DNA of 64,000 bases from an uncultured Gammaproteobacteria bacterium (GTDB lineage Bacteria > Patescibacteriota > Microgenomatia > Levybacterales > UBA12049), in contig CAZHKZ010000002.1 in assembly GCA_964533055.1 (NCBI GenBank), forward strand, positions 8,129-72,128. The letters are read 5' to 3'. The position numbers and the translations under genes are program-made. The first letter of the stretch is position 1. Every line of letters starts with the position of its first letter. This document shows positions 1-62,054 of this stretch, piece after piece. Below the pieces are notes generated by a model, which saw only the letters and a list, made by a program, of their open reading frames with translations, was not told the origin of the DNA and did not search any database.

Positions 1-983
1 TTGAAACACTTGCATTTAATGTTTCAGCGCTTGTTCTCGCTATGAATGGGTTTGGAGTGAGTAGCTTCACCTATGCTGTAGTGCTTCGTGGTGTGCTTGG
101 ACTCATAGCTGTTTATATTATTTCACCTTGGAAAATAAAGATTGGAATCTCAAGAAAAGCTGCAAAAGAGCTGATGTCATTTGGTATTCCTTTTCAAATT
201 AATTCATTACTCGCGCTGGCAAAAGATAATCTATTTTTTCTCTATCTTGGTGCTGTTTTGCCGCCAGCAGCACTTGGATACATTGGAGTCGCACAGAAGT
301 GGGCATATATACCGCTTCGCTTGATCATGGACAATCTTATTAGAATTACCTTCCCATCTTTTTCTCGACTTGCACATAGTCCTGAATATCTAGGAAAAGC
401 AATTGAGAAGACATTATTTAGCACCGCGTTTTTTATCTTTCCAGCAGTAACTGGAATGGTAATTCTTATGCCGCACTTTATGAGTGTTTTTCCTAAGTAT
501 CAGAAATGGGAGCCAGCTCTTGTTTCACTTACGTTTTTTGGAATAAACGCGATTCTCTCGTCAATTTCCACACCTCTGACTAATGCACTAAATGCTATTG
601 GAAAGATAAAGGTCACATTGTATCTGATGGTATTTTGGACAATAGCCACATGGGTGATTACTCCAACTATGATTCATTTTTATGGGTTTAACGGAGTATC
701 AATTGCATCTGCAATTATTGCGTTAAGTTTTGTTGGGGTTGTAATGCTTGTAAAACGGTTCATTGCCTTTTCAATATTTAAGATCATTTTATATCCGCTC
801 ATTGCCACAATTTGTATGGGAATAGCGCTGAGTGTTTTTGGAAATTACTTTATTACAAGCTATCTTACAATATTCATTGGAATAGTTATTGGCGCACTAG
901 TTTATTTTGCTGTAATGTATCTACTAGCATCAGCTATGATAAGAGCAGATATCCAGATGATAAAGGAGAATCTTAAAAAATAA
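1..983 (+). CDS. Wzx/MOP-family polysaccharide flippase, C-terminal fragment (5' end outside window)
   Basis: The reading frame is open from base 3 with no upstream stop; the first in-window ATG is at 42. The product is polytopic and hydrophobic, ending IRADIQMIKENLKK, which resembles Polysacc_synt_C-type flippase C-termini. It is followed by a GT2 gene with an ATGA overlap. Confidence 0.6.
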   Translation, partial: ETLAFNVSALVLAMNGFGVSSFTYAVVLRGVLGLIAVYIISPWKIKIGISRKAAKELMSFGIPFQINSLLALAKDNLFFLYLGAVLPPAALGYIGVAQKWAYIPLRLIMDNLIRITFPSFSRLAHSPEYLGKAIEKTLFSTAFFIFPAVTGMVILMPHFMSVFPKYQKWEPALVSLTFFGINAILSSISTPLTNALNAIGKIKVTLYLMVFWTIATWVITPTMIHFYGFNGVSIASAIIALSFVGVVMLVKRFIAFSIFKIILYPLIATICMGIALSVFGNYFITSYLTIFIGIVIGALVYFAVMYLLASAMIRADIQMIKENLKK

Positions 984-1894
984 TGAAAATCAGTGTTTGC
1001 ATCACGACATTTAATAGCCAGGAGCATATAGAAGATTGTCTAAAATCTGTTAGTTTCGCAGATGAGATAATTGTTGTTGATCATGAATCAATAGACAATA
1101 CGTTGTCAATTGTTAAGAAGTACACAAAAAATATCTATATTCAAAAGAATGACCCAGAGAAAATAGATCTTCAAAAGAATTTTGGATTTAAAAAAGCTAC
1201 TAATGATTGGATTTTGAGTTTGGATGCTGATGAGCGTGTTCCAGGTGATCTTGCAAAAGAGATTGGTCAGAAAATAAGTATTACTGGTAATGAATATGTT
1301 GGGTATAGAATACCTAGAAAAAATATTATATTTGGAAAATGGATCCAGCACTCACTTTGGTGGCCAGACCTTCAGTTGAGATTATTTCAAAGAGGTAAAG
1401 GTCAGTACTCCCAAGATAACGTTCATAAAGATCTTCAACTAAGTGGGGAATGTGGAAAGCTTGAAAATGTGTTAATACACGAGAATTATCAATCGATTTC
1501 ACAATACTTGCAGAAGATGGATGTATACACTCAGTCAGAGGCAAAAGCATATGTTGCAAGTGGGAAGAAAGTTCATATGACAGACGCAATGAGGTTTCCA
1601 GTTCAAGACTTTCTTAAGACATTTTTCCTTCAAAATGGTTATAGGGATGGTCTCCATGGCTTTGTTCTGAGTTCACTACAAGCATTTTATGCATTTCTTA
1701 TTTTTGCAAAATGCTGGGAAATACAAGGATTTAAGGAAGAGAATAGCGAAGACTTCTTAAAAGTTGTTGAGAGGGAGTGGATTAGAGCTCAGAAGGAAAT
1801 CTCATATTGGTTCTTAACATCATTTATTTCACGAACAAAGAACCCTCTAAAAAAAATGCGACTCTCTCTTCAAAGAAAGGTTAAGACTGTTTAA
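983..1894 (+). CDS. Family 2 glycosyltransferase (WaaE/KdtX-like)
   Basis: N-terminus reads ISVCITTFN...CLKSVSFADEIIVVDHESIDNT...LDADERV, the GT2 DxD context typical of WaaE/KdtX-type LPS-core GT2s. The start overlaps the upstream stop (ATGA). Confidence 0.8.
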   Translation: MKISVCITTFNSQEHIEDCLKSVSFADEIIVVDHESIDNTLSIVKKYTKNIYIQKNDPEKIDLQKNFGFKKATNDWILSLDADERVPGDLAKEIGQKISITGNEYVGYRIPRKNIIFGKWIQHSLWWPDLQLRLFQRGKGQYSQDNVHKDLQLSGECGKLENVLIHENYQSISQYLQKMDVYTQSEAKAYVASGKKVHMTDAMRFPVQDFLKTFFLQNGYRDGLHGFVLSSLQAFYAFLIFAKCWEIQGFKEENSEDFLKVVEREWIRAQKEISYWFLTSFISRTKNPLKKMRLSLQRKVKTV

Positions 1895-1895
1895 T

Positions 1896-2810
1896 ATGCA
1901 AAAAATTGTCATCTCACTTATTGACTATAAAGGGCAGCAGAAGACTGATTCATGTCTTCTGTCGTTAGACCAGATGAGATTTACGAATATGGAAGTTGAA
2001 GTGGTTGTTATAGATAACTTTCCTTCAAGCCCATTTAAGTCTGAAAGGAAATATAAAAACTTCCAACTAAAAGTAATTAGACCAGAAAAAAACTTAGGGT
2101 TTGCAGGAGGTCACAATTTAGGAATAGAGTATGCAAAAGCAAAAGAAGCTGATTTTGTGATTGTTTTGAATAATGACACAACGGTTGATGAGAACTTGCT
2201 CGTCGAGCTTGTGAGGCCATGTGAGAAGGACAGTAAGATTGGGGCAGTTGTCCCAAAGATCTATTTCATGAAAGGGCATGAATATCATAAAGATAGGTAT
2301 AGGCAGTCAGATTTAGGCAAGGTAATTTGGTATGCGGGTGGACACATGGACTGGGATAACATTAATGGAGTGCATGAAGGCGTAGATGAAGTAGACAATG
2401 GTCAGTTTGATCAAGACAGAAAAGTAGATCTACTCACAGGATGTTGTGTTCTTTTTACGAAAAGTGCCCTTGAGTCGATTGGAGGGTTTAATGAATCATA
2501 CTTTCTTTATTATGAGGATGCTGATCTAAATGAGAGATTGAAGAAGGCAGGTTTTAAAGTTCATTTTGCGGCAAAAGCGCATCTTTGGCACCTCAATGCT
2601 GGTTCGACTGGTGGGTCTGGTTCTGTTTTGCAGGACTACTTTATAAGTCGCAATAGACTGCTTTTTGGTATGAGATTTGCATCAAGTAGAACAAAGATCG
2701 CGCTTATCCGTGAGAGTTTACGAATTCTGGTCTCAGGGAGAGAATGGCAAAAAATTGGTGTGAAAGATTTTTATAAACGAAAATTTGGAAAAGGAAGTTT
2801 TGGACTGTGA
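1896..2810 (+). CDS. Family 2 glycosyltransferase (WbbL/rhamnosyltransferase-like)
   Basis: Contains VVVIDNFPSS...VLNNDT...GCCVLFTKSALESIGGFNESYFLYYEDADLNERL, the standard GT2 catalytic core. Confidence 0.8.
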   Translation: MQKIVISLIDYKGQQKTDSCLLSLDQMRFTNMEVEVVVIDNFPSSPFKSERKYKNFQLKVIRPEKNLGFAGGHNLGIEYAKAKEADFVIVLNNDTTVDENLLVELVRPCEKDSKIGAVVPKIYFMKGHEYHKDRYRQSDLGKVIWYAGGHMDWDNINGVHEGVDEVDNGQFDQDRKVDLLTGCCVLFTKSALESIGGFNESYFLYYEDADLNERLKKAGFKVHFAAKAHLWHLNAGSTGGSGSVLQDYFISRNRLLFGMRFASSRTKIALIRESLRILVSGREWQKIGVKDFYKRKFGKGSFGL

Positions 2811-3601
2811 AAAAGCGTACCCTCTCAGTAATAATTCTTACAAAAAATGAAGAATCAATGATCGCAGATTGTTTGTCATCTGTATCATTTGCCGATGAGA
2901 TTGTCGTCGTTGACAATTATTCTACCGACTCAACTGTTGAAATCGCCAAAAAACAGCATGCAAAAGTTATTAGTACAAATGCAGCAAGTTTTTCTATTAG
3001 ACGCGAGATTGGCCTTCAGAAAGCCGGGAATACTTACATTTTTTATCTTGATGCTGATGAGAGAGTGTCTCCAGAGTTAAAAATTGAGATTCAAGATTTT
3101 TTGTCATCAGCTAAAGATACAGACGCATATATTATTAAAAGACAAAATTATTATCTCGGTAAAAATCCCTGGCCTAAAATTGAGCATTTTCCACGTTTCT
3201 TTAAGAGAACAAGTCTTAAGGGTTGGCGTGGCGATCTCCATGAATCACCCATTTTTAACGGTACTCAGGGTGAATTTTCGGGGTATATCGAGCATTTTAC
3301 ACACAGGAATTTTTCATCAATGGTGGCAAAGACGAATGAGTGGTCTGGTGTTGAGGCCAAGTTGAGATTTGATGCGTCTCATCCGAAGATGTCTTGGTGG
3401 AGATTCCCTAGAGTGATGCTTGGAGCCTTTTATGAGTCATTTGTGACTGCGCAGGGATTTAAGGCAGGAAAAGTAGGCTTTATGGAGAGTGTTTATCAAA
3501 GTTTTAGTATGTTCATCACGTACGCGAAGCTGTGGGAGCTTCAGGTTAATCAAGCGAACGCTGCAAAAAGTACTCATAAAAGGGAAAAATTGCTACAATA
3601 A
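2807..3601 (+). CDS. Family 2 glycosyltransferase (WaaE/KdtX-like), paralog of 983-1894
   Basis: GTG start overlaps the upstream TGA (GTGA). Reads SVIILTKNEESMIADCLSSVSFADEIVVVDNYSTDSTVEIA...YLDADERV, the same motif order as the gene at 983. Confidence 0.8.
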   Translation: MKKRTLSVIILTKNEESMIADCLSSVSFADEIVVVDNYSTDSTVEIAKKQHAKVISTNAASFSIRREIGLQKAGNTYIFYLDADERVSPELKIEIQDFLSSAKDTDAYIIKRQNYYLGKNPWPKIEHFPRFFKRTSLKGWRGDLHESPIFNGTQGEFSGYIEHFTHRNFSSMVAKTNEWSGVEAKLRFDASHPKMSWWRFPRVMLGAFYESFVTAQGFKAGKVGFMESVYQSFSMFITYAKLWELQVNQANAAKSTHKREKLLQ

Positions 3602-3605
3602 TACT

Positions 3606-4682
3606 GTGAAGATTGCAATTTTTGATCCTTATTTAGATACCATGTCAGGTGGAGAGAAATATATGCTTACTGCAGCACTCTCTTTGGCAAAGGACCATGA
3701 TGTGACAATTCTTTGGGACACATCTCAAAAATCAGAAATAGCACTCAAAGCGAAACGACGTTTTGGATTTGAGTTAGCACCATTTGCCTTCAAGGATTCT
3801 TTTTTTACAAAAAAAGTATCACTATTCTCACGTTTGATTCAGAGTAGGGCGTATGATGCGATTCTTGTACTAAGTGATGGAAGTATTCCTCTTGTTTCTT
3901 GTGATCTAGTCCTTCATTTTCAGTCGCCAATGGAATGGGTGAGAGCAGACTCATTCCTTTCTAGAATTAAGCTTTTTCGAGTTAAAAGATTTATCTGCAA
4001 TTCAGTTTTTACAAAAGAATATATAGATAAGCGTTTTCATATTGTTAGTGATATTGTCTATCCTCCCGTCTCAATCCAGGCTGATGGAGATTTGTCGATA
4101 AAAGAGAACTATATTCTCAATGTTGGAAGATTCGGGATTACTGGAAAGGGTTCTAGTCTTAAGAAGCAGGATGTTCTCGCAGATGTCTTTTCCGAGATGA
4201 TAAAAAGCGATCTTAAAAATTGGAAAATGGTCTTTATTATGAGTGTTATGGATCAGGAGAAAATAGATTGTGATAAATTTATCCAAAAATATAAAGGACA
4301 ACCGATTGAGTTTATCATTAATCCTACAAACGCAGAGCTTTGGTCCTGGTATAAAAAATCAAGTATTTACTGGCATGCATCTGGGTTTGGGGAGGACATC
4401 AGGGCTCACCCAGATAGAGCTGAGCACTTTGGGATTGCAACTGTGGAGGCGATGGGCGCTGGCCTTATCCCTATTGTGATTAATGCAGGTGGTCAGAAGG
4501 AGATTGTTCAGAACGGGGTAAATGGGTATTTATGGGATACAAAAGAGGAATTGGTAAAGAGAACTCTTGAAGTTATTGAAGATAAGAAGAAACGAACTGA
4601 AATGGCAAAAGCCTCGATAGATAGCGTACATCATTACTCGCTTGAAGAATTTGAGAGGAAAATTCAGGCAATTTTTCTATGA
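3606..4682 (+). CDS. Family 4 (GT-B) glycosyltransferase
   Basis: C-terminal EX7E-type motif HFGIATVEAMGAGLIPIVINAGGQKEIV. I chose the in-frame GTG at 3606 (VKIAIFDPY...) just after the upstream stop at 3601; the track start at 3489 overlaps the previous gene by 113 nt. Confidence 0.75.
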   Translation: MKIAIFDPYLDTMSGGEKYMLTAALSLAKDHDVTILWDTSQKSEIALKAKRRFGFELAPFAFKDSFFTKKVSLFSRLIQSRAYDAILVLSDGSIPLVSCDLVLHFQSPMEWVRADSFLSRIKLFRVKRFICNSVFTKEYIDKRFHIVSDIVYPPVSIQADGDLSIKENYILNVGRFGITGKGSSLKKQDVLADVFSEMIKSDLKNWKMVFIMSVMDQEKIDCDKFIQKYKGQPIEFIINPTNAELWSWYKKSSIYWHASGFGEDIRAHPDRAEHFGIATVEAMGAGLIPIVINAGGQKEIVQNGVNGYLWDTKEELVKRTLEVIEDKKKRTEMAKASIDSVHHYSLEEFERKIQAIFL

Positions 4683-6910
4683 AGTCGAAGCTCATTGCAC
4701 CGTTGGTATTTGTTCTTTGTCTGATTTTCTTTTTTAAAGCATTTTTCTTTAGTGGTTTATTGCCAATTCCTTCAGATTTGCTTGTTGGTTTGTTTCATCC
4801 ATTTAGGGACTCATATGCAAAAGAATATCCAAGAGGAATTCCATTTAAAAATTTTCTCCTTACCGACCCAATTACTCAGCAGATACCATGGAGAGATTTA
4901 TCATTTCAGGAGATGGGTTCAGGTAGTCTTCCTCTTTGGAACCCATATCAAATGGCTGGATATCCGCTCTTAGCGAATATTCAATCAGCACCTTTCTATC
5001 CATTCAATCTTCTTTTTTTAATTCTGCCATTCTCCCTTGGATGGTCAATGCTTATTATCTCTCAGCCCTTAATTGCGATGATAGGAATGTATCTTTTTCT
5101 GAGGCAAGAGAAATTGAGCAAAGAGAGTAGTATTTTTGCGTCGATTATTTTTGCGTTTAGTGGGTTTATGGTCGCATGGCTTGAATGGGGGACGATAGGT
5201 TCAACTGCTGCGTGGATGCCTCTAATGCTATATTTCTTTTCAAGGACAGTTATCGATAAGAGAAAATTACCCCCCTCCTTTTTGTTAGGATTTGCAGTTA
5301 TCTGCTCTTATCTTGCTGGGCATACTCAAACATTTTTCTATGAGATGGTTATTCTTGTCTCATATATAGCTTTTTGTTTCATTAGTAAAAAGTCTCAGCT
5401 TAAAAGCATCCTACCTTCATTATTGGCTATCGGAATTGCATCAAGTATCTTGTTGCCGCTAATCTTGATGCAGTTTCAGTTTATCAATCTTTCTGCGCGA
5501 ATGGTCGATCTTGATTGGCATGCTGTTGGGTGGTTTATTCCGTGGCAGAATCTGATTCAATTTATCGCCCCAAATTATTTTGGCAATCCTGCAACGGGAA
5601 ATTATTGGGGAGTATGGAACTATAGTGAGTTTTTGGGATACGTTGGCATTCTCCCGATAATTTTTGCTTTTGCTGCGCTTCTCTTTGTGAGAAGTCGACA
5701 GGTTTTTTACTTTGGTGCTGTTGCGTTCTTAGCATTTCTTATTGGATTCCCGACTGTGCTTGCATACCTACCTTTTCAAGCGGATATTCCCTTCCTATCG
5801 TCTGCACAGCCTACGCGAATTCTATTTGTTATAGATTTTGCGCTAGCAGTACTCTGTGCATATGGTCTGGAGGCATTTAAAAAAATGCCAAAAAAATCAT
5901 TATTCTTGCCCGCTGGGATTTTGCTTATTCTTGGGGTAATTTTTATAGTTTCAAGGTCAATGATTGGTAGTAGTGCATTGACTCAGGAGAATTGGCTTGT
6001 TGCTCAGAGGAATCTTATTTTCCCAGTAATTTTTACGCTTATTTCTATAGCAATCTTTGTGTTGAGCTCTTTTCTTCCCAGAGCTAGAAGGTTTTTACCA
6101 GTTATCATAATCATTGTTGCTACTATTGACCTCTTTTTAGTTATGCAGAAGTATACGCCATTTACAACTAGTCAATACTTCTATCCAGAAGTGAAGTTGC
6201 TTACATACCTTAAAGACAAGTCGGGGATAAATAGAGTTATGAGTCTGGATAGAAGGATTCTTCATCCAAATATCGCAACAAAGTATCGGATTCAGATGAT
6301 TGAAGGGTATGATCCTCTTTATCTCCTTCGTTATGGTGAGCTCTTAGCAGCGTCAAAAAGACAAATGCCTGATATTGCACCACCCTTTGGATTCTCGAGA
6401 ATACTCACAACAGATCGTTATCTGAGTCCAATTATCAATCTTCTTGGAGTCAAATATATTCTTAGTCTTAATGAGATTAATGACCCTAATCTCAAAGAAG
6501 TGTACGCTCAGGGTCAGACAAAGGTTTATCAAAATAAGCTAGCTCTACCCCGAACATTCTTTGCAGCTCAAGTAAGCACCGTTAGTTCTAAAGAGGGCTC
6601 GATAGAGTTCCTATTTAGAGAAAAGAATTTGTTGGATAGAGTAGTTGCTGAGACAACGCAGACGATCTCAGGGGAGTACTCCAAAGGCATCGTGGAGGTC
6701 ATATCATATGAGCCTAACAGTGTTCAATTGAAGACATCTAATAAGGGCGAGGGTTTTTTGGTGCTGACCGATAGTTTTTATCCAACCTGGAAAGCATATA
6801 TTGATGGGAAGTCAACTCAAATTTACCTTACAGACTTTTTGTTTAGAGGTGTTGTTGTGCCAAGCGGCGACCATCATGTAGAATTTATCAATACTGTGTT
6901 TGCAAGATGA
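4679..6910 (+). CDS. YfhO-family GT-C membrane glycosyltransferase
   Basis: 743 aa and polytopic. N-terminal loop LPLWNPYQMAGYPLLANIQSAPFYPFN and C-terminal FYPTWKAYIDGK...HHVEF are characteristic of YfhO-like proteins. ATGA overlap with the upstream gene. Confidence 0.7.
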   Translation: MKSKLIAPLVFVLCLIFFFKAFFFSGLLPIPSDLLVGLFHPFRDSYAKEYPRGIPFKNFLLTDPITQQIPWRDLSFQEMGSGSLPLWNPYQMAGYPLLANIQSAPFYPFNLLFLILPFSLGWSMLIISQPLIAMIGMYLFLRQEKLSKESSIFASIIFAFSGFMVAWLEWGTIGSTAAWMPLMLYFFSRTVIDKRKLPPSFLLGFAVICSYLAGHTQTFFYEMVILVSYIAFCFISKKSQLKSILPSLLAIGIASSILLPLILMQFQFINLSARMVDLDWHAVGWFIPWQNLIQFIAPNYFGNPATGNYWGVWNYSEFLGYVGILPIIFAFAALLFVRSRQVFYFGAVAFLAFLIGFPTVLAYLPFQADIPFLSSAQPTRILFVIDFALAVLCAYGLEAFKKMPKKSLFLPAGILLILGVIFIVSRSMIGSSALTQENWLVAQRNLIFPVIFTLISIAIFVLSSFLPRARRFLPVIIIIVATIDLFLVMQKYTPFTTSQYFYPEVKLLTYLKDKSGINRVMSLDRRILHPNIATKYRIQMIEGYDPLYLLRYGELLAASKRQMPDIAPPFGFSRILTTDRYLSPIINLLGVKYILSLNEINDPNLKEVYAQGQTKVYQNKLALPRTFFAAQVSTVSSKEGSIEFLFREKNLLDRVVAETTQTISGEYSKGIVEVISYEPNSVQLKTSNKGEGFLVLTDSFYPTWKAYIDGKSTQIYLTDFLFRGVVVPSGDHHVEFINTVFAR

Positions 6911-9802: not shown

Positions 9803-9804
9803 CT

Positions 9805-10521: not shown

Positions 10522-10538
10522 GTAGAAGTGGGAGAAAT

Positions 10539-12194: not shown

Positions 12195-12195
12195 G

Positions 12196-13839: not shown

Positions 13840-13840
13840 T

Positions 13841-20077: not shown

Positions 20078-20121
20078 TATCTTGCAATTATCCCTGGTAT
20101 ATCACATGCTAAGAGGTGTAT

Positions 20122-47281: not shown

Positions 47282-47282
47282 T

Positions 47283-53481: not shown

Positions 53482-53487
53482 CATCCT

Positions 53488-56126: not shown

Positions 56127-57247
56127 TGAGAATAGGGATTGATGCTCGTTTTTGGAATGAAACCGGTGTGGGTCGCTATATTCAAAACCTTGTTGCCAAT
56201 ATCATTATTCTTGATAAGTCAAATGACTATGTGTTGTTTGTTCGATCTCAAGATCTCGCAAAAGTACAACTATTTACAAAGAATTCGAATTTCACATGCA
56301 TTCCGGTAGATATTCCGTGGCACTCTTTAAAAGAGCAAACGCAATTTACGTCAATCATTAAGGAGCAAAAAGTTGACCTCATGCACTTTCCTTATTTCTC
56401 AGTACCAATTAGCTTCAATGCTCCATTTATTATCACAATTCATGATCTTATTCTGCATCACTTCCCAACAGGTGAGGCAAGTACACTATTTTTGCCACTC
56501 TATTATGCAAAATGGCTTGGGTATAAATTAGTGATTGCATCAGCTGCGAGAAGGGCATTGCATGTATTAACAGTCTCGAATGCGACAAAGGATGAGATAA
56601 TTGATCATCTCGGAATTAAGAACGAGAAAATAAGCGTGATCTATGAAGGAGTGGATAGCCAGCTTTCATCCGTATCTTTGAAATCTCAAACAACAAAACC
56701 GGAAAAATATTTTCTCCATGTAGGTAATGTCTATCCTCATAAAGATCCGAAAGTTCTTGTTGATGCATTCTCAAAACTTAATGATGAGGCAGTCTCCCTT
56801 ATATTTGTTGGCAAACAAGATCACTTTATGAAGAAATTAGAGGAGTATGTTAGAAAAAAGCATCTTAAAAATATTGTGTTCAAAGGATTTGTGCCTGATG
56901 TTGAATTGGCAAATATGTATAGAAATGCACTTGCTACTGTAGTTAGTTCAAAAATGGAGGGGTTTGGTCTTCCTGCTGTGGAAGCGATGATAAATACATG
57001 CCTTGTTGTTTCATCAGACATCCCTTCATTGCGTGAGGTTACGAAAGGTAATGCACTGTTTTTTAAGCAAGGTGATGTGGAAGGCTTGAGTCAGCTCTTA
57101 CTTACTCTTGCTAAGGATGAGCAAAACAAGTATGCTTCCCAAAAGATAGACGCAGAAAAAATCGCAAAGGAATATTCATGGGAGAGAATGGCAAAGGAGA
57201 CTATAGCTCAATATGAAGGTTGCAATCGTATACGACAGGATAAATAA
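56126..57247 (+). CDS. Family 4 (GT-B) glycosyltransferase
   Basis: GTG start overlaps the upstream stop by 1 nt. Reads EGFGLPAVEAMINTCLVVSSDIPSLREVTKGNALFF. Confidence 0.8.
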   Translation: MRIGIDARFWNETGVGRYIQNLVANIIILDKSNDYVLFVRSQDLAKVQLFTKNSNFTCIPVDIPWHSLKEQTQFTSIIKEQKVDLMHFPYFSVPISFNAPFIITIHDLILHHFPTGEASTLFLPLYYAKWLGYKLVIASAARRALHVLTVSNATKDEIIDHLGIKNEKISVIYEGVDSQLSSVSLKSQTTKPEKYFLHVGNVYPHKDPKVLVDAFSKLNDEAVSLIFVGKQDHFMKKLEEYVRKKHLKNIVFKGFVPDVELANMYRNALATVVSSKMEGFGLPAVEAMINTCLVVSSDIPSLREVTKGNALFFKQGDVEGLSQLLLTLAKDEQNKYASQKIDAEKIAKEYSWERMAKETIAQYEGCNRIRQDK

Positions 57248-58307
57248 ATGGGGAGGTGCTGAACGAGTCCTCCTTGCTCTTCACGAGCTTTTTCCGAATG
57301 CACCACTCTTCACCTCAGTCTACTACAAAGAGAAGGCAGCATGGGCAAAAGATTTTGAAATTAGGCCATCTTTCCTCCAGAATTTTCCATTTGCCAAGGG
57401 TGGACACGAGCTTTATCCGATACTTATGCCACAGGTATTTGAATCATTTGATTTTGCAGAATATGATGTTGTGATTTCGGTGACTAGTGAGGCGGCGAAG
57501 GGAATTATCACCAAGCCAGGCACGTTGCATATTTGTTATTGTCTGACTCCAACTCGGTATCTTTGGAGTGGATATGATCAATATTTCCAAACTCCACTTG
57601 TTAGGTTTTTATCCTATCCATTTGTGAGATATCTGAGGATGTGGGAAAAAATTGCAGCCAATAGGCCTGATATTTTTGTTGCTATCTCACATGAGGTTCA
57701 AAACAGGATTAAGAGGTACTATCAAAGAGATTCTGCTGTAATTTATCCACCAGTAAGTCTCTTCGAGAGATATACACATTTAAGGCGAAAGCAAGGCGAG
57801 TATTATTTGGTTGTCTCAAGACTTGTGCCATATAAAAAAGTCGAACTAGCAATTAAGGCATGTAATACCCTAAAAAGAGATCTAGTTATTGTTGGTGTAG
57901 GTAGTGAGATGACTAGGCTTAAGAGGATAGCGGGCCCAACAGTGACCTTCAAAGGCTCGCTAACTGATGATGAGCTAGCAAATGTTTATGTAGGTGCAAA
58001 AGCAGTTATTTTCCCAGGTTTTGAGGATTTTGGTATTGTGATGGGAGAGGCTCTGGGTTTTGGTAAGCCAGTAATTGCGTACAAAAAAGGTGGGGCACTT
58101 GACCTCATCAAAGACAAGAAGACAGGAATTCTTTTTCAAGACCAGACGATTAAGTCCCTGACTCAGGCAATTCTGAATTTTGAAAAGACAGTTTTTCATA
58201 CAAAAGTTCTTGAAAGTGAAGCTAAACATTTCTCAAAGAAAGTATTTAAGGACTCAATCTCATTACTTATCGATCAGGCTTTGCAAAAGACAAGTTTCAT
58301 ACTATAA
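57213..58307 (+). CDS. Family 4 (GT-B) glycosyltransferase
   Basis: The N-terminus MKVAIVYDRINKWGGAERVLLAL is a typical GT4 start. C-terminal motif GFEDFGIVMGEALGFGKPVIAYKKGGALDLI. Overlaps the upstream gene by 35 nt. Confidence 0.8.
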   Translation: MKVAIVYDRINKWGGAERVLLALHELFPNAPLFTSVYYKEKAAWAKDFEIRPSFLQNFPFAKGGHELYPILMPQVFESFDFAEYDVVISVTSEAAKGIITKPGTLHICYCLTPTRYLWSGYDQYFQTPLVRFLSYPFVRYLRMWEKIAANRPDIFVAISHEVQNRIKRYYQRDSAVIYPPVSLFERYTHLRRKQGEYYLVVSRLVPYKKVELAIKACNTLKRDLVIVGVGSEMTRLKRIAGPTVTFKGSLTDDELANVYVGAKAVIFPGFEDFGIVMGEALGFGKPVIAYKKGGALDLIKDKKTGILFQDQTIKSLTQAILNFEKTVFHTKVLESEAKHFSKKVFKDSISLLIDQALQKTSFIL

Positions 58308-58320
58308 TAATTTTAATCGT

Positions 58321-59406
58321 ATGAAAGTTGTGCTTTTTGCAGGGGGAGTAGGATCAAGACTCTGGCCACTCTCAAGAAAAAATTCTCCTAAACAGTTCGG
58401 GAATATCATTGGTGACAAATCGATGCTTCAGATTGCAGTTCAGAAACTTTTCCCCACATTTGAATGGTCGGACGTTTTTATCTCTACAGGCAAGCAGTAT
58501 GCACAAACTGTGCGTGAACAATTATCACAGCTGCCAGCAGAGAATGTTATCGTTGAGCCAGAGATGCGAGATGTCGGTCCAGCGGTCGGACTCATTACCG
58601 CCCTCTTTGTCAAGAGTGATCCAAATGAGCCCATTGCTTTGCTTTGGGGAAGTGATCATCTAGTACGCGAAGAGGAGTTATTCCGAAAACTCTTAAAGAC
58701 AGCAGAGGGAATTGTGAAGCAAGACGGACAGAGAATAGTATTTTTGGCACAAAAGCCACGATTTGCAAATCAGAATTTGGGATACATAGAGTTCTCAGAT
58801 CAAGTTGACTCTGTTGATGGTATTTCAGTTTATAAATTCTCCAATCTTCATTACAGGCCTGAGCTTGAAAAGGCAAAAGAATGGGTTAAAGACGGCAAGC
58901 ATTCCTGGAATCTTGGATATTTCGTTACGACTCCTTCGTATCTCTGGAAGTTATTTGAGGAATTCTCGCCAGATCTTTTTGAAAAGCTTAAAAAAATTCA
59001 TGATGCAATTGGGACCCCAGATTATCAAAGAGTTCTTGAAGTAGTCTACCCAAGTGTTGAAAAGATCTCATTTGATAATGCAATTCTTGAGAAGATGGAT
59101 CCAAATTCAGGCTTTGTGCTTTCAGAGGATTTGGGATGGAGCGATGTGGGGGCGTGGGAGGCACTTAAAGAGGCATTATCGGATACAGAGGAAGAGAATG
59201 TTACAAAAGGAAATGTTCTTATCGAGAATACTCAGGACTCACTCGTTTTTAACTATAATGAACAGCTTGTAGTCGGAATTGATTTGCAAGGGATGGTAGT
59301 TGTAAATACAGGCGATGTTCTGTTGATCTGTCCAAAAGACTCAGTCCCCAAGATAAAAGAGATCGTGAGTAAGCTCTCAGGAACAAAACACGAACATCTT
59401 GCATGA
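58321..59406 (+). CDS. manC: Mannose-1-phosphate guanylyltransferase-like sugar nucleotidyltransferase (ManC type, no cupin/PMI domain)
   Basis: The N-terminus MKVVLFAGGVGSRLWPLSRKNSPKQF is the classic ManC/GMP G-G-x-G-x-R-L-W-P-L-S signature. The 361-aa product lacks the C-terminal isomerase domain. The track ORF at 58180 is an in-frame upstream extension. Confidence 0.8.
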   Translation: MKVVLFAGGVGSRLWPLSRKNSPKQFGNIIGDKSMLQIAVQKLFPTFEWSDVFISTGKQYAQTVREQLSQLPAENVIVEPEMRDVGPAVGLITALFVKSDPNEPIALLWGSDHLVREEELFRKLLKTAEGIVKQDGQRIVFLAQKPRFANQNLGYIEFSDQVDSVDGISVYKFSNLHYRPELEKAKEWVKDGKHSWNLGYFVTTPSYLWKLFEEFSPDLFEKLKKIHDAIGTPDYQRVLEVVYPSVEKISFDNAILEKMDPNSGFVLSEDLGWSDVGAWEALKEALSDTEEENVTKGNVLIENTQDSLVFNYNEQLVVGIDLQGMVVVNTGDVLLICPKDSVPKIKEIVSKLSGTKHEHLA

Positions 59407-59407
59407 C

Positions 59408-60073
59408 ATGCCTTATAAAGAAATCAAAAAAAGTAAAGGCTATGAGTTAATCAAGAGACTCCTTGATATTGTTTCATCTTTTTTTCTTCTCCTTTTTTTC
59501 TCTCCAATTATCATCATTGTTGCAATTGCAATAAAGCTTGATTCGCCAGGTCCTATTTTTGCTGATACCCCTCAGAGAGTCGGGAGAAATGGGAAGTTAT
59601 TCAAAATGTTTAAATTCAGATCAATGATACAAAATGCACATAACCTTTTGCGTGAAGATCCAGAGTTTGCCCTTCTTTATGAGCAATATAAGAAAGGTAG
59701 CTATAAGTTAAAGAGTGATCCGCGCATCACTCATGTTGGTAAATTTATTAGAAAACATTCACTAGATGAGGTGCCGCAGTTTCTTAACGTACTTCGAGGC
59801 GATATGAGCCTTGTTGGTCCTCGGGCATATTACCCAGACGAACTTGTTGAGCAGCAGAAGAACTATCCTGACACACAAGATGCTGTAAAGATTGTGCTCT
59901 CAGTTAAGCCTGGAATTACCGGGTATTGGCAGGTTTCTGGAAGAAGTGATATTAACTTCGATAAGAGAATAGAGATGGACGCAGACTATGTAAAAAAAAG
60001 ATCAATTGTTTTTGACATATTCTTAATGGCAAAGTCACCATGGGCAATGCTAACTGGTAAGGGTGCGCTCTAG
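59408..60073 (+). CDS. Initiating polyprenol-phosphate sugar-1-phosphate transferase (small monotopic PglC/WbaP C-terminal-domain type)
   Basis: One N-terminal TM helix, then ...IKLDSPGPIFADTPQRVGRNGKLFKMFKFRSM...DEVPQFLNVLRGDMSLVGPRA, the 'bacterial sugar transferase' signature. I prefer the ATG at 59408 to the TTG at 59399. Confidence 0.8.
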   Translation: MPYKEIKKSKGYELIKRLLDIVSSFFLLLFFSPIIIIVAIAIKLDSPGPIFADTPQRVGRNGKLFKMFKFRSMIQNAHNLLREDPEFALLYEQYKKGSYKLKSDPRITHVGKFIRKHSLDEVPQFLNVLRGDMSLVGPRAYYPDELVEQQKNYPDTQDAVKIVLSVKPGITGYWQVSGRSDINFDKRIEMDADYVKKRSIVFDIFLMAKSPWAMLTGKGAL

Positions 60074-60078
60074 AAAAA

Positions 60079-60109
60079 TTTGACAACAAAGAGCTCCCTC
60101 TCGTATCAT
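60079..60109 (+). promoter_or_regulatory. Candidate promoter (TTGACA-19 nt-TATCAT) upstream of the DUF4012-like gene
   Basis: A consensus -35 TTGACA at 60079-60084. The -10-like TATCAT at 60104-60109 ends 7 nt before the ATG at 60117. The spacer is long (19 nt), so this is weak. Confidence 0.2.
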
Positions 60110-60116
60110 TATACGT

Positions 60117-62054
60117 ATGTCAGGATTTGAGAAGATTGATTTAGACCTAAAAACAGCTCCAATTGTAGATTCACCCGATATGGCACGAAAGACAAAAAAG
60201 ACATCATTTTTTAAGCGCAACCTCAAAAAAATTAGCATTGGACTTGCAGTCTTCATTGTTATTTTTGTTGTGGGATTTGTCATTCCAGTTCTCGCAGTAG
60301 TTTCATCAGCAAAAAAGACGTATGCACAGGTTAAGCTGCTTTCTGCCGCTATGAAACAGCAGGATATAACAGTCGCTTCAACTGAACTCAAGAAGACCCA
60401 GGCTGCACTCAATGATACAGCTTCCAAAATGAAGTTCTTAGGATACCTTCATTTTGTACCTGTTGCTAACTTCTACTATAACGATGCAGATCATCTGATG
60501 AAGGCTGGTATCGAGGGGCTTAAGACCGGAGATATAGTTGTGGAGTCTCTCAAGCCATACGCAGATGTGCTTGGGTTGAAAGGTCAAGGTAGTTTTACGG
60601 GTGGGTCGGCTGAGGAAAGAATTAAGACAGCTGTGCTTACCATGGGTAAGATCACACCTCGAATTGATGAAATTGCTGCGAGCCTTACTTTAATTCAGAA
60701 AGAAATTGATCAAGTTAACCCAAATCATTATCCAGAATTTATTTTCGGTAAGAAGATTAAGTCTCAGTTGGCTCAGGTAAAGACATTGACTGATCAGGGT
60801 GCAGGTTTTGTAGACCAGGCTCGACCCTTGATCAAAGTGCTCCCATCACTTCTTGGAGAGAATGAAGACAAGCGATACCTCGTACTCTTTCAAAATGATA
60901 AAGAACTTCGACCAACAGGAGGCTTCATTACCGCCTATGCCATTTTTAAGCTTACAAATGGCGTAATTAAACTTGAGAAGTCAGATGATATCTATGTCTT
61001 AGATAACTCAATTTCAGGAAAACCAAAAGCGCCTGCGCCAATTTTGAAGTATTTCCCTAAGGTGAGTGTTCTTAATCTGCGAGACAGTAATTTGTCTCCA
61101 GACTTCATCGAGTCGATGAAGACATTTAAGTCACTTTATAATAAGGCAGGTCAGAAAGTCGATGTTGATGGGATTATCGCAATTGATACGTATGTTCTCA
61201 CATCTACCATCAAAGTTCTTGATGATCAGATCGTGGTAAATGGCCAAACATTTACTACTAAAAATGATCCACGTTGTGATTGTCCGCAAGTTATTTATGC
61301 ACTTGAAGATAACATCTCGCGTCCTGTTAATTATATTAAGACAGACAGGAAAGGTTTGCTAGGGGACATGCTTACGGCTCTTATGAGCAAGGCGCTTTCA
61401 TCCTCGCCAAAGATCTATTGGGGCCCGCTTTTCCAGACTATGCTTACTCAAACCAATCAAAAGCACGTTCTTTTTGATCTTGAGAATGCTGATGCTCAGA
61501 AAGGTATTACAGCTCTTAAAGCTGCTGGTCGGATAGAGGACTTCGAGGGAGACTACTTCCATCTTAATGAAGCAAACTTTAGTGGAGCTAAAGCTAACCT
61601 TTTCTTAAGTCAAACAGTTGAGCATAGTTATACAGTTAAGGGGGGTGTAATTTCAAAAACCGTGACTGTCAATTACAAGAACTTGCACGAGCCATCTGAC
61701 TGCAATCTTGAGCGTGGCGGGCTTTGTCTTAACGCAGAATATAGAGATTGGTTCAGAGTTTATGTACCAAAGGGAAGTAAATTAGTGAGTAGTGATGGGT
61801 CTCAAGTCAAGATGGCTACATCAGAAGATCTTGGAAAGACGGTATTTGAAGGATTTTTGACAGTGCGCCCGCTTGGCAAGGCAACATTAACATTTACATA
61901 CACTCTTCCATTTAAGGTCGAAGGAGCTTCAATCCCACTACTTATCCAGAAACAGCCTGGTACTGACGCTCCAGAATATACCATCAAGGTCAACGGAAGA
62001 ACTGTTCAGAAGTTCCCACTCCTCACCGATAAAGAATCTGAAATTAAATTCTAA
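60117..62054 (+). CDS. Signal-anchored exported protein, DUF4012-like
   Basis: 645 aa. A basic N-terminus and one TM helix (ISIGLAVFIVIFVVGFVIPVLAVV) precede a large extracytoplasmic domain containing FQNDKELRPTGGFITAY. I recall this as the DUF4012 NxELRPTGGF-type motif, but I cannot verify it without a search. Confidence 0.55.
   Translation: MSGFEKIDLDLKTAPIVDSPDMARKTKKTSFFKRNLKKISIGLAVFIVIFVVGFVIPVLAVVSSAKKTYAQVKLLSAAMKQQDITVASTELKKTQAALNDTASKMKFLGYLHFVPVANFYYNDADHLMKAGIEGLKTGDIVVESLKPYADVLGLKGQGSFTGGSAEERIKTAVLTMGKITPRIDEIAASLTLIQKEIDQVNPNHYPEFIFGKKIKSQLAQVKTLTDQGAGFVDQARPLIKVLPSLLGENEDKRYLVLFQNDKELRPTGGFITAYAIFKLTNGVIKLEKSDDIYVLDNSISGKPKAPAPILKYFPKVSVLNLRDSNLSPDFIESMKTFKSLYNKAGQKVDVDGIIAIDTYVLTSTIKVLDDQIVVNGQTFTTKNDPRCDCPQVIYALEDNISRPVNYIKTDRKGLLGDMLTALMSKALSSSPKIYWGPLFQTMLTQTNQKHVLFDLENADAQKGITALKAAGRIEDFEGDYFHLNEANFSGAKANLFLSQTVEHSYTVKGGVISKTVTVNYKNLHEPSDCNLERGGLCLNAEYRDWFRVYVPKGSKLVSSDGSQVKMATSEDLGKTVFEGFLTVRPLGKATLTFTYTLPFKVEGASIPLLIQKQPGTDAPEYTIKVNGRTVQKFPLLTDKESEIKF

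Follow-up and report, generated by a model that had tools for sequence, protein, structure and literature searches.

Extracytoplasmic glycosylation in bacteria has been described in a three-part frame, consisting of a GT-A C55-P-sugar synthase, a flippase of the GtrA or Wzx type and a GT-C enzyme that carries a YfhO domain, a PMT_2 domain or no Pfam domain (PMC8035078; PMC5836110). The mechanism proposed below for the locus resembles multi-component transmembrane glycosylation in Gram-positive bacteria as well as the assembly of mycobacterial arabinogalactan and LAM. The window, i.e. the whole stretch of 64,000 nucleotides analyzed, holds, with an estimated probability of about three in four, the greater part of a supercluster for cell-envelope glycan biosynthesis that spans at least 65 kb and in which three conserved modules lie end to end. 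Its most likely function is to assemble lipid-linked envelope glycans, which GT-C enzymes would elaborate extensively on the extracytoplasmic side.

According to the ORF list and Pfam scans, positions 42-62,054 are filled by 49 genes, and an unbroken run of genes, over 62 kb long, is given over to surface sugar polymer synthesis in a bacterium of the candidate phyla radiation (CPR). Only 3 of the 49 genes lie on the minus strand (13841-14470, 33160-34662 and 34796-35767), in line with an earlier description of the locus as lying almost wholly on one strand; all other genes below are on the plus strand. Start-stop overlaps of 4 bp (ATGA/GTGA) were found at 13 junctions unambiguously and at 2 more with the nearest alternative start, giving 15 where at least 14 had been claimed, and one-base overlaps occur twice. 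From this spacing alone, the genes appear to be tightly coupled in operons, probably with translational coupling. The 3' boundary is formed by RecO (62108-62656), followed by a glycyl-tRNA synthetase (GlyRS) gene that starts at 62699 and runs past the window end. The 5' boundary lies outside the window, the locus extending upstream of position 1; in a close relative the Wzx gene is preceded by a further GT2 gene and a further PTPS_related GT-C gene.

The earlier note read the region as one elaborate lipid-linked glycosylation system. The component assignments support such a system, but three conserved modules, joined in series and differing in history, appear to be the better reading of the sequence: module 1 (from before position 1 to ~24.6 kb), module 2 (24.6-46 kb) and module 3 (46-62 kb, beside recO-glyS). 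All three recur in relatives, each with its gene order kept. Module 1 is found in the same order at 48 % amino acid identity in the related locus L086, and the module 2 core is present on a 1.57-Mb contig (L087). Related metagenome loci, 31-79 in number and 68-100 % of those with room, carry the module 3 genes in the same order, and in GTDB MAGs these genes adjoin RecO-GlyRS. A chimeric assembly, the other possibility raised earlier, is ruled out by an independent, collinear assembly (Logan contig SRR15221276_19353) whose gene order is identical throughout the 41 kb compared, namely 1-19.8 kb and 21.7-43.2 kb of the window. In a comparison of 29 genes with this assembly, dS was not computable for 2, and all 27 computable genes showed purifying selection with dN/dS values of 0.01-0.24. 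Together with the identical gene order these values indicate that the genes are real and functional.

Judged from its homologues, the host is a Patescibacteria (CPR) bacterium, probably with Microgenomates/Levybacteria kinship; this placement draws on the taxon names carried by homologues that share 39-58 % identity. These names are Candidatus Levybacteria, Patescibacteria group or Saccharimonadales, which fits an earlier guess of a Patescibacteria-like organism, and members of two GT-C families discussed below (family C and the 7874 family) include proteins named Levybacteria or Patescibacteria. The guess also fits the DUF4012 protein encoded at 60117-62054 (79.5 bits), which has a TM helix at its N-terminus, since this family has been reported to be enriched in CPR and Gram-positive bacteria; it is also present in a Bifidobacterium CPS/EPS cluster (PMC6744442). 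The protein is a probable extracytoplasmic accessory protein. The best GlyRS matches include MAGs of Falkow-, Peri-, Peregrini- and Gracilibacteria, the best among GTDB representatives reaching only 53 %.

Profile searches recovered all the cytoplasmic enzyme types listed in the earlier note. GalE, a UDP-glucose 4-epimerase (24660-25631), scores 384 bits against TIGR01179 (cut-off 262). The ManC-like mannose-1-phosphate guanylyltransferase (58321-59406) combines NTP_transferase and ManC_GMP_beta-helix domains without a PMI domain and matches TIGR01479 with E 1.3e-67 (positions 3-349 of 467). Two further genes, adjacent to each other, encode a DegT-family sugar aminotransferase (29808-30965; DegT_DnrJ_EryC1 E 6e-129; best NCBIfam matches PseC, below its equivalog cut-off, and ArnB) and a WecD-like N-acetyltransferase with GNAT domains (30962-31708; PRK10975, dTDP-4-amino-4,6-dideoxygalactose acyltransferase, E 3.7e-23, below cut-off). 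Two SAM methyltransferases (35846-36547, Methyltransf_11/31/23 E 1e-15; 39738-40421, Methyltransf_23 E 2e-20) and a WcaF-like hexapeptide O-acetyltransferase (48930-49535; Hexapep E 1e-14, PRK10502 E 3.5e-27) are candidate modifying enzymes. The initiator is a small polyprenyl-phosphate phosphoglycosyl transferase of PglC size (59408-60073; 221 aa; Bac_transf E 2.6e-60; EPS_sugtrans/WbaP C-terminal domain E 2.5e-75). An SDR protein on the minus strand (34796-35767; Epimerase E 3e-33, RmlD_sub_bind E 1e-20) can be classed no finer than sugar epimerase/dehydratase/reductase.

The claimed minimum of 16 GT2/GT4 enzymes is correct, as Pfam scans gave 16 full proteins. GT2 domains (Glycos_transf_2 unless stated) occur in 10 proteins, encoded at 983-1894 (E 5.6e-19), 1896-2810 (Glyco_tranf_2_3/Glycos_transf_2 E 1e-12), 2807-3601 (E 1.2e-19; GTGA overlap with the preceding gene), 6907-7884 (E 4e-22), 9805-10521, 20116-20985 (E 8.6e-21), 27947-29806, 36544-37572 (E 2e-24), 46137-47069 and 49523-50371 (E 5.5e-28). 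GT4 domains (Glycos_transf_1 unless stated) occur in 7, at 3606-4682 (E 5e-19; the start agrees with a 358-aa gene call in the related locus L085), 25628-26686 (E 2.6e-30), 27947-29806, 47815-48933 (E 6e-42), 54942-56126 (Glyco_trans_1_4 E 5e-20), 56126-57247 (E 1.7e-27) and 57213-58307 (E 2e-24). The 619-aa protein of 27947 is a GT2-GT4 fusion (Glycos_transf_2 at residues 9-174, Glyco_transf_4 and Glycos_transf_1 at residues 270-601). A stand-alone GT4 N-terminal domain of 175 aa (47283-47810; Glyco_transf_4 E 1.5e-12 only), which 42 of 45 related loci share with a median identity of 57 %, was counted apart. Both proposed lipid-sugar synthases are borne out, with matches below equivalog cut-offs. 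The soluble 238-aa protein of 9805 (Glycos_transf_2 E 1e-32) resembles polyprenyl-phosphate-sugar synthases, its best NCBIfam matches being AglJ, ArnC, PpgS and dolichyl-P hexose transferase, all below cut-off. The ArnC/PgfS-like protein of 46137, of the polyprenyl-phosphate sugar synthase type with two C-terminal TM helices, matches PRK10714 (ArnC) over its full length (E 3.9e-51; positions 8-298 of 316). The two flippases claimed are Wzx-type proteins. One (42-983; Polysacc_synt_3 E 5.9e-22, profile positions 135-283) is cut by the window start, so that only its last 313 residues are encoded here out of 484 aa, the length of its 98 % identical orthologue in L085; the other lies at 26683-27960 (Polysacc_synt 45.9 bits, Polysacc_synt_3 34.9 bits).

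At least 12 large GT-C-type proteins had been reported; these are real, and a TM scan raised the number of large polytopic proteins to 16. Pfam matches (YfhO, PMT_2, PTPS_related), AF2 models, profile-profile comparisons and loop motifs place all 16 in the GT-C fold, in ~8 sequence families. Profile-profile probabilities were 90-100 %, two AF2 models (pLDDT 87.5 and 88) gave significant PDB matches exclusively to GT-C enzymes, and the N-terminal loops carry acidic motifs (WDE, GDEW, DPARD, GVDxW, D..H). The five PMT_2-like proteins recognized earlier include two PMT/PMT_2 paralogues sharing 34 % identity (blastp 1e-80), at 10539-12194 (N-terminal WDE motif; PMT_2 37.5 and PMT 33.2 bits, each exceeding its cut-off) and 12196-13839 (45.6 and 38.1 bits). 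The others are a divergent protein with an N-terminal DE motif (18416-20077; PMT_2 E 1.2e-3; blastp 5e-33 to 22516) and those of 22516-24048 (PMT_2 45.1 bits) and 53488-54945 (64.8 bits). The three YfhO-like proteins are YfhO/PTPS_related: a 743-aa protein with ~14 TM helices in the TM scan (4679-6910; YfhO 64.6 bits, cut-off 28.5), of which the C-terminal end likewise matches YfhO, and a tandem pair with 43 % identity (blastp 8e-144) at 14476-16161 (PTPS_related 37.3 bits, cut-off 26.4; family profile versus PMT_2 97.7 %, E 2e-12, by hhalign) and 16166-17863 (25.7 bits, slightly below cut-off). The WaaL-like fusion is a 1037-aa protein (50368-53481), kept at full length in at least 79 metagenome loci. 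Its N-terminal half is Wzy_C/O-antigen-ligase-like (Wzy_C 27.7-28.5 bits, cut-off 31.7; IctB family E 3.4e-8) and its C-terminal half is PMT_2-like GT-C (hhalign with the 37595 family 98.9 %, E 2e-17 over 411 columns).

Four GT-C families are without Pfam/NCBIfam coverage and a fifth (40418/44208) has sub-threshold AftD matches only. Five GT-C proteins had been missed at first reading (7874, 20987, 31683, 33160 on the minus strand, and 37595). The 642-aa protein of 7874-9802, without a match in the Pfam or NCBIfam scans, has 55 homologues; the 14 top PDB matches of its AF2 model (pLDDT 88, pTM 0.90) in Foldseek are all GT-C enzymes (STT3 3e-7, DPY19, AglB, PglB, AftA, ArnT), and hhalign to PTPS_related gave 90.6 % over 402 columns. 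Distantly PMT_2-like are the 510-aa protein of 20987-22519 (hhalign to the PMT_2 group 93.5 %, E 2.3e-7) and the 702-aa protein of 37595-39703 (family profile A4, 97.5 %, E 6.8e-12). The former has no Pfam match; its family (579 cluster representatives) conserves a FWYDPARD motif and PMT_2 is matched by 3 of 27 members. The latter has no match in the Pfam or NCBIfam scans and belongs to a family with a conserved D29-E30-W31 motif. Family C comprises the protein of 31683-33167, which overlaps the GNAT gene and has no Pfam or NCBIfam match, and a convergent paralogue (33160-34662, minus strand; blastp 1.6e-110, 39 % identity) with all family-C invariant residues. The association with GNAT and the convergent pair are kept in L082-L084, where a PMT_2 gene separates the pair. 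In L087 a 499-aa minus-strand ORF beside the minus-strand epimerase is a candidate for one family-C paralogue. The AftD-like pair is supported, with weak Pfam matches. The 1140-aa member (40418-43840; GT-C_AftD 19-20 bits, cut-off 26) has a large extracytoplasmic C-terminal region with DUF5667 (30-32 bits), and its family profile scored 90.1 % against both PMT_2 and PTPS_related. The 630-aa member (44208-46100), without a Pfam match, is related to it (family profiles 100 %, E 4e-43) and to PTPS_related (97.8 %, E 7e-13 over 442 columns). Each of the component assignments was borne out by HMM, profile or structure evidence.

Four smaller proteins have no assigned function. A conserved 209-aa single-TM protein (13841-14470, minus strand), without a Pfam match, occurs at the corresponding place and orientation in both L085 and L086; its identity is 84 % and its dN/dS 0.07. 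The TM scan revealed small membrane proteins of 183 aa (17868-18419; no Pfam match; L085 orthologue 59 % identical) and ~191 aa (24045-24620; 190-aa orthologue in L081), and a 131-aa 4-TM protein (43816-44211) with only a weak DUF2079 match; in L087 an ORF of ~135 aa comes after the 1132-aa protein.

From gene content, enzyme folds and families, conserved gene order and purifying selection the following mechanism may be proposed. In the cytoplasm GalE, ManC and the DegT/GNAT/SDR set would provide UDP-Gal/Glc and GDP-Man as well as an amino-deoxy sugar in N-acetylated form. The PglC-sized transferase would prime polyprenyl phosphate and the 16 GT2/GT4 enzymes would lengthen lipid-linked oligosaccharides, with O-acetylation and O-methylation added, while in parallel the ArnC/AglJ-like GT2 enzymes would load single sugars onto polyprenyl phosphate. 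Wzx-type flippases, possibly along with the small membrane proteins, would carry lipid-linked donors across the membrane. Outside, the Wzy_C-like/GT-C fusion would polymerise or ligate the repeat unit and the 16 GT-C enzymes would attach further sugars from polyprenyl-phosphate donors, presumably one linkage each; candidate final acceptors are a wall polysaccharide, a lipid anchor or surface proteins. Against this scheme counts that one priming transferase stands beside two Wzx flippases in the window and that module 3 lacks a flippase of its own. Pfam scans detected no GtrA-family flippase, Wzz/PCP chain-length regulator or LCP ligase within the window, and several matches lie below cut-offs (Wzy_C and AftD, curated Pfam; ArnC, AglJ, WecD and PseC, equivalog).

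The overall logic is that of an already known kind of cell-envelope glycan pathway. What is notable in the locus is its GT-C density, the four uncovered families with the fifth, the Wzy_C-GT-C fusion and the STT3-like pair. Module 3 forms the lineage-wide core, to which modules 1 and 2 would contribute GT-C-rich elaboration. The commitment of more than 60 kb, called unusual in the earlier note, is so for bacteria in general, but the locus is not peculiar to this genome and is typical of its lineage: dozens of metagenome contigs share the gene order of module 3, and the small number of relatives examined share that of modules 1 and 2.

The locus holds 49 genes packed within positions 42-62,054, and only three of the 49 lie on the minus strand, in keeping with the almost single-strand locus described in the earlier note. 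Genes and proteins are named here by their start coordinate. A Pfam scan of every ORF of at least 100 aa in the window found a GT2 domain in ten proteins (983, 1896, 2807, 6907, 9805, 20116, 27947, 36544, 46137 and 49523) and a GT4 domain in seven (3606, 25628, 27947, 47815, 54942, 56126 and 57213). With 27947, a GT2-GT4 fusion, belonging to both sets, the earlier claim of at least 16 GT2/GT4 enzymes holds. Both postulated flippases were recovered as Wzx-type proteins with Polysacc_synt/Polysacc_synt_3 above cut-off (42-983, truncated by the window start, and 26683-27960). The single initiator in the window is the priming transferase 59408 (Bac_transf 203.5 bits, cut-off 27). Other Pfam content comprises DegT, GNAT, two SDR proteins, two methyltransferases, a hexapeptide acetyltransferase, a ManC-like nucleotidyltransferase and a DUF4012 protein. 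In the NCBIfam comparison 24660 exceeded the equivalog cut-off of GalE. The nearest families of 29808 (PseC/ArnB), 30962 (WecD) and 48930 (WcaF) were all matched under their equivalog cut-offs. Protein 46137, with two C-terminal TM helices, gave a full-length ArnC/PgfS-like match (173.9 bits versus an equivalog cut-off of 529), and the soluble GT2 9805 was nearest to AglJ, PpgS and dolichyl-phosphate hexose transferases, again under the equivalog cut-offs. Because all matches except GalE stay below these cut-offs, they are taken as family resemblance and not as functional identification; of the two lipid-sugar synthases proposed before, the resemblance of 46137 (ArnC/PgfS) and 9805 (AglJ/PpgS) stands, but not a functional assignment.

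Junction analysis revealed 13 unambiguous and two alternative-start ATGA/GTGA overlaps (15 four-base overlaps) plus two one-base overlaps, in agreement with the at least 14 start-stop overlaps counted before. Promoter and terminator scans gave no enrichment compared to shuffled sequences and operon boundaries could not be drawn, so that operon structure is read from gene spacing alone. An alternative genetic code with recoded UGA was rejected: translation table 11, with TGA as stop, gives contiguous full-length ORFs, and TGA ends many genes in ATGA overlaps. Scans for tRNA and Rfam families found no RNA genes in the window. At its 3' boundary the locus is followed by RecO (62108-62656, short with 182 aa) and a class-II glycyl-tRNA synthetase (GlyRS) running from 62699 past the window end. 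The GC content is 0.32-0.41 overall, with 0.32-0.36 across 26-46 kb versus 0.37-0.41 on either side; the stretch of low GC is roughly that of module 2 (24.6-46 kb), which lies between module 1 (from before position 1 to ~24.6 kb) and module 3 (46-62 kb).

Several small ORFs accompany the recognizable enzymes. The sole minus-strand gene of module 1 (13841-14470) encodes a 209-aa single-TM protein with a Ser-rich N-terminus; it has no family match, its place and orientation are kept in two relatives and its dN/dS is 0.07. Three small multi-TM ORFs of 131-191 aa (17868-18419, 24045-24620 and 43816-44211) have no Pfam match, and a GtrA match was absent in all three even at an E value of 10. The first two are kept in the sister strain, the 17868 orthologue being the fastest-evolving gene compared (59 % identity), and an ORF equal in size to 43816 occupies the matching position in the comparison locus L087. 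By analogy with GacJ/GtrA these three ORFs are candidate small flippases or candidate membrane partners of the soluble GT2 9805. A gap of 213 bp (47070-47282) precedes 47283-47810, a 175-aa stand-alone GT4 N-terminal domain with a fragment-like appearance. A pseudogene fragment was nevertheless rejected, as 47283 is kept in 42 of 45 relatives at a median identity of 57 %; it probably is a non-catalytic or split-enzyme partner of a neighbouring GT4.

A hydropathy scan revealed 16 polytopic proteins, 485-1140 aa long, for which 9-24 TM segments are predicted. Eight of these were placed via Pfam GT-C families: 4679 in YfhO (64.6 bits versus a cut-off of 28.5, with its C-terminal end matching as well), 10539 and 12196 in PMT/PMT_2, 22516 and 53488 in PMT_2, and 14476 in PTPS_related, counting also 16166, which scores 0.7 bits under the PTPS_related cut-off and is 43 % identical to 14476, and 18416, a clear paralogue of 22516. 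The proteins 7874, 20987, 31683, 33160 (minus strand), 37595 and 44208 received no Pfam/NCBIfam assignment even at permissive thresholds, 40418 and 50368 showed sub-threshold matches only, and NCBIfam gave zero assignments among the ten membrane proteins scanned. Single-sequence hhalign comparisons of 20987, 7874 and 44208 with the PMT_2 group were not significant and deeper profiles were needed. Searches with four families yielded 365, 23, 55 and 579 homologues or cluster representatives. The profile of the 37595 family (23 homologues), with a conserved GDEW motif, matched the PMT_2 group at 97.5 % (E 6.8e-12), and that of the 20987 family (579 cluster representatives) at 93.5 %, with 3 of 27 members matching PMT_2 directly. 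The 7874 family profile (55 homologues) aligned with PTPS_related over 402 columns at 90.6 %. The 40418 and 44208 family profiles, built from homologues in loci fetched from relatives, matched each other at 100 % (E 4e-43); the 44208 profile matched PTPS_related at 97.8 % and PMT_2 at 92.9 %, and the 40418 profile each of the two at 90.1 %. The PTPS_related and PMT_2 profiles themselves matched at 97.7 % (hhalign). In the 40418/44208 family GT-C_AftD was matched by one member only, at profile positions 409-544 and with 19.3-20.4 bits versus a cut-off of 26. An iterative HMM search confined to the fetched loci was too shallow and did not link the families, and searches of PDB sequences with single sequences or profiles found nothing relevant for 50368, 40418 and the family profiles A1, A4, A5 and A6.

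Two AF2 models, one of the 7874 family (pLDDT 88, pTM 0.90) and one of family C, the convergent pair 31683 (+) and 33160 (-) sharing 39 % identity, are helical bundles with a GT-C fold, and all 14 significant PDB matches of the 7874 model are GT-C enzymes. Motifs with invariant or conserved D/E residues occur near the N-terminus (WDE, S/IDE, GDEW, DPARD, GVDxW and D..H), presumably at an extracytoplasmic position; none is clear in 44208. Taken together, Pfam, profile-profile and structure matches support all 16 polytopic proteins as GT-C-type enzymes of approximately eight sequence families, family C by structure alone. The earlier note was right about the type of these proteins, but the count of at least 12 has to be raised to 16 in the window, and to at least 17 with an upstream gene seen in the sister strain. 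Four of the GT-C families (five genes) have no Pfam/NCBIfam coverage, while the fifth family (40418/44208) has only the sub-threshold AftD match of one member.

One GT-C protein is a fusion. The N-terminal half of 50368 matches Wzy_C at 27.7-28.5 bits versus a cut-off of 31.7, and the IctB family with an E value of 3.4e-8. Its C-terminal half aligns with the 37595 family over 411 columns at 98.9 % (hhalign, E 2e-17). A metagenome scan with 50368 found 309 relatives, the best 80 of which are essentially full-length and show 40-61 % identity. The C-terminal half of the 1140-aa protein 40418 (42,218-43,837), beyond the GT-C core, contains DUF5667 and a weak Golvesin_C-like match, with a final TM helix near residue 1116. 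By analogy with AftD, this region may be an acceptor-binding domain. A DUF5667-containing gene also adjoins the related locus L082.

The component types of the locus are known from several envelope pathways. The Gram-positive scheme consists of a GT-A enzyme making a C55-P-sugar, a flippase of the GtrA- or Wzx-type, and a GT-C enzyme (YfhO, PMT_2 or without Pfam domain) which transfers the sugar to a wall polymer (PMC8035078; PMC5836110). Soluble GT-A enzymes sometimes require a small membrane partner, and the several-Mb genome of a model Gram-positive contains about three GT-A/GT-C pairs at scattered positions (PMC8035078, Table 1). The systems CsbB/GtcA/YfhO, GtlA/GtlB, GacI-J/GacK/GacL and the lactococcal CsdAB/CD/EF combine a GT2 synthase with a GT-C enzyme and may use a Wzx-type flippase, component types that the locus has as well, the synthases as candidates. 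However, the window combines 16 GT-C enzymes in one locus with only two to three candidate synthases, and no GtrA-family flippase was detected. In the synthesis of mycobacterial arabinogalactan and lipoarabinomannan, too, a polymer primed on lipid is elongated and branched on the outer side of the membrane by many different GT-C enzymes (Emb, AftA-D, MptA/B, PimE). The structural matches include AftA, AftD, AftB, EmbA/B/C and PimE, and the 1140-aa GT-C with its large extracytoplasmic domain is comparable to AftD. In mycobacteria the GT-C genes are dispersed, M. tuberculosis having roughly 15-20 GT-C enzymes over 4.4 Mb, whereas the genes in the window are clustered and co-directional, without sequence-level membership of the mycobacterial families and without genes for decaprenyl-phospho-arabinose. 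Wzx/Wzy-type O-antigen and capsule systems, and the CPS/EPS cluster of Bifidobacterium longum in which DUF4012 occurs, share with the locus a priming transferase of the PglC/WbaP type, GT2/GT4 enzymes, Wzx, a Wzy_C-like domain, an O-acetyltransferase and DUF4012. In contrast to these systems the Wzy_C-like domain of the window is sub-threshold and fused to a GT-C, no Wzz/GNVR (PCP) match was found among the 50 ORFs scanned, though such a gene may be situated beyond the window, and a tyrosine kinase and LCP ligase are absent from the window.

The locus thus follows the logic of known envelope-glycan pathways and is not a new kind of system. With a probability of roughly three in four, its gene content points to lipid-linked assembly of an envelope glycan with GT-C elaboration outside the cell as the general mechanism. 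Four steps are proposed from the component set, in which the Gram-positive multi-component scheme is joined by a full route to lipid-linked oligosaccharides, with its priming transferase, the 16 GT2/GT4 enzymes, Wzx and the Wzy_C-like domain. Precursors would be made and loaded onto polyprenyl phosphate in the cytoplasm, lipid-linked donors would be flipped across the membrane, the fusion protein 50368 would polymerise or ligate the repeat unit, and the GT-C set would perform extensive extracytoplasmic elaboration. The donor of the GT-C enzymes may be a polyprenyl-phosphate-linked sugar, for which 9805 and 46137 are candidate synthases. The two methyltransferases suggest that methylated sugars may be included. 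In module 2 the coupling of DegT, GNAT and family C, together with the ArnC-like GT2, suggests an Arn-like branch that would deliver an N-acetylated amino-deoxy sugar. Like the Arn pathway (ArnB/ArnC/ArnT) and the Fuc4NAc branch of ECA synthesis (WecE/WecD), the window has DegT, a WecD-like GNAT, an ArnC-like GT2 and adjacent GT-C genes, the GNAT gene overlapping the family C gene 31683. The matches are however below equivalog cut-offs, homologues of ArnA, ArnD and ArnE/F are absent and family C is not detectably GT83.

It could be argued that the GT-C enzymes act chiefly on surface proteins, for instance pilins or S-layer proteins, comparable to actinobacterial O-mannosylation by Pmt/Ppm1, fed by GDP-mannose from ManC via polyprenyl-phosphate mannose. 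ManC is encoded in the locus, 10539 and 12196 exceed the Pfam threshold of PMT (GT39) as well as that of PMT_2, and the structural matches include Pmt4, Pmt1/2 and DPY19. However, Gram-positive PMT_2/YfhO enzymes for the most part modify teichoic acids and polysaccharides of the wall (PMC8035078), the locus also carries the full lipid-linked oligosaccharide pathway, and it contains no candidate gene for an acceptor protein. We consider a role mainly in protein glycosylation unlikely and prefer the assembly of an envelope glycan.

Whether this glycan is the product of one system is a separate matter, and here the relatives are informative. Module 1 occurs with identical gene order in the comparison locus L086 at 48 % protein identity. 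The core of module 2 is found on the 1.57-Mb contig L087 as SDR (minus strand), methyltransferase, GT2, a 702-aa GT-C, methyltransferase, a 1140-aa GT-C and a small membrane protein, accompanied by DegT and GNAT. The overlapping GNAT-family C pair and the convergent second family C gene recur in Levybacteria-like contigs, the longest of 378 kb, with a PMT_2 gene separating the two family C genes. The widest distribution by far is that of module 3 (46.1-62.05 kb), which does not itself encode a flippase. In the best 80 loci, as far as these have enough flank, 47815, 48930, 49523, 53488, 54942 and 56126 are present in 98-100 %, ManC and the priming transferase in ~90 % and 47283 in 42 of 45 loci, with one and the same order of all these genes. 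In GTDB MAGs module 3 has an equal 3' end beside RecO-GlyRS. In most relatives (loci L095-L167) a further GT2 gene separates the homologues of 54942 and 56126. It is absent in the window, where 54942 and 56126 abut by a one-base overlap, so that this GT2 was lost here or gained elsewhere. The sister strain, represented by the 68-kb Logan contig SRR15221276_19353, is collinear gene by gene with window positions 1-19.8 kb and 21.7-43.2 kb (41 kb in total) at 59-99 % protein identity, the last gene compared being truncated where the locus ends. Upstream of the window the locus extends further on this contig: its Wzx is 484 aa long and is preceded by a 238-aa GT2 and a PTPS_related GT-C. Divergence from the sister strain changes abruptly from 64-87 % nucleotide identity and dS 0.7-2.3 (1-22.7 kb) to 89-96 % nucleotide identity and dS 0.2-0.44 (from ~23.2 kb). 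The break falls within 22,700-23,200, inside gene 22516-24048, and indicates recombination or module exchange.

Conservation, divergence and composition together lead to the division into modules: the locus is a concatenation of three conserved modules and not one demonstrable system. The interpretation of the earlier note is supported in its component assignments, but three modules describe the locus better than a single system. That the entire 62 kb forms one integrated line for a single, very complex glycoconjugate would agree with the one priming transferase serving the window, with genes that run almost continuously on one strand with 15 overlaps, and with the position of module 2 genes (40418- and 44208-like) immediately upstream of module 3 in some relatives. 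Against this stand the two Wzx flippases, the separate and different arrangement of the modules in relatives, the shift in dS at ~23 kb and the GC dip across 26-46 kb, and we regard such a line as improbable, somewhat more so than a role chiefly in protein glycosylation.

For family C a more specific role may be considered. STT3, AglB and PglB are the best structural matches of the family C and 7874-family models, and family C includes an AglB-like C-terminal domain. The pair might therefore be a minimal, divergent STT3/AglB-like oligosaccharyltransferase which would transfer a Wzx-flipped oligosaccharide en bloc from polyprenyl diphosphate. However, the proteins are ~200 residues shorter than STT3/AglB/PglB and have no WWDYG motif. 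In family C the WWD motif is absent from the consensus of 22 sequences, Pfam STT3 was matched by zero members at E values up to 10 and a PDB profile search found no OST, so that the resemblance is one of fold only. The proposed activity is doubtful. Equally doubtful is the most far-reaching scenario as a whole, in which a CPR lineage would build a conserved, possibly essential envelope heteropolysaccharide almost wholly on the outer side of the membrane. The line of at least 16 GT-C enzymes employed for this would be analogous to that of mycobacterial arabinogalactan, though of independent evolutionary origin, and would include the four GT-C families outside Pfam/NCBIfam and the fifth with its sub-threshold AftD match, a Wzy_C-GT-C fusion polymerase and family C as an en bloc STT3/AglB-like OST without WWDYG.

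Selection on the locus bears on its stability. The dN/dS was 0.01-0.24 in all 27 computable genes, including the unassigned ones (29 genes were compared, dS being not computable in two), and such values throughout identify functional genes. A strain-specific, horizontally acquired island for a variable surface antigen, resembling O-antigen or capsule loci, would fit the lower GC across 26-46 kb, the mosaic divergence with its recombination-like break at ~23 kb and the absence of the GT2 that is common between 54942 and 56126 homologues in relatives. It is highly improbable in view of the strong purifying selection throughout, the absence of mobile-element and tRNA genes from the window, and the conserved gene order of all three modules. 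This order persists where protein identity has fallen to 40-50 %: many contigs of several environments show it for module 3, single relatives at a greater distance for modules 1 and 2. The organization regarded as unusual in the earlier note is thus not peculiar to this genome but typical of its lineage. An assembly chimera of different organisms, in favour of which nothing was found beyond the general tendency of paralogue-rich regions to misassemble, is refuted by the independent SRR15221276 assembly, collinear over 41 kb and further upstream, by a third assembly (SRR27712898) that reproduces module 1 and by dozens of JGI/ENA contigs that reproduce module 3.

The Patescibacteria-like host guessed in the earlier note is borne out. 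Named homologues derive from Candidatus Levybacteria, Patescibacteria group bacterium and Saccharimonadales, and the GTDB species representatives with the best-matching GlyRS (46-53 % identity) include MAGs of Falkow-, Peri-, Peregrini- and Gracilibacteria. According to Méheust et al. (PMC6744442), DUF4012 is enriched in CPR and Gram-positive bacteria, and it occurs in a Bifidobacterium CPS/EPS cluster. On these three grounds a CPR origin is well supported, while placement in Microgenomates/Levybacteria is tentative. The best GlyRS identity of only 53 % suggests that the lineage is thinly represented among reference genomes, or reflects a limit of the pattern-based scan. Five GTDB MAGs (L001, L002, L006, L008 and L015) carry NCBI titles of uncultured Gammaproteobacteria/Pseudomonadales, yet in these a CPR-type module 3 adjoins RecO-GlyRS; as their GlyRS groups with Patescibacteria MAGs, the taxonomic labels look unreliable. 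Hainich groundwater is one environment with homologues.

Novel features of the locus are its GT-C density, the GT-C families outside Pfam/NCBIfam coverage, the conserved Wzy_C-GT-C fusion, the likewise conserved stand-alone GT4 N-terminal domain and the strongly conserved GT-C pair with STT3/AglB among its closest structural relatives. A literature search found no account of GT-C-rich loci in CPR bacteria. The fusion and the STT3-like pair are concrete targets for biochemistry, and the alignments, with two confident structure models, for GT-C families missed by HMM libraries may lead to better annotation of thousands of metagenomic proteins. Most CPR/Patescibacteria have not been cultivated; their cells are tiny and often epibiotic, and their surface presumably is the interface with the host. 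To our knowledge the chemistry of their envelope is essentially undescribed. A CPR genome typically is ~1 Mb, and if this applies here the locus takes up several per cent of it. As the locus shows, one CPR lineage maintains 65 kb or more under purifying selection for envelope glycans.
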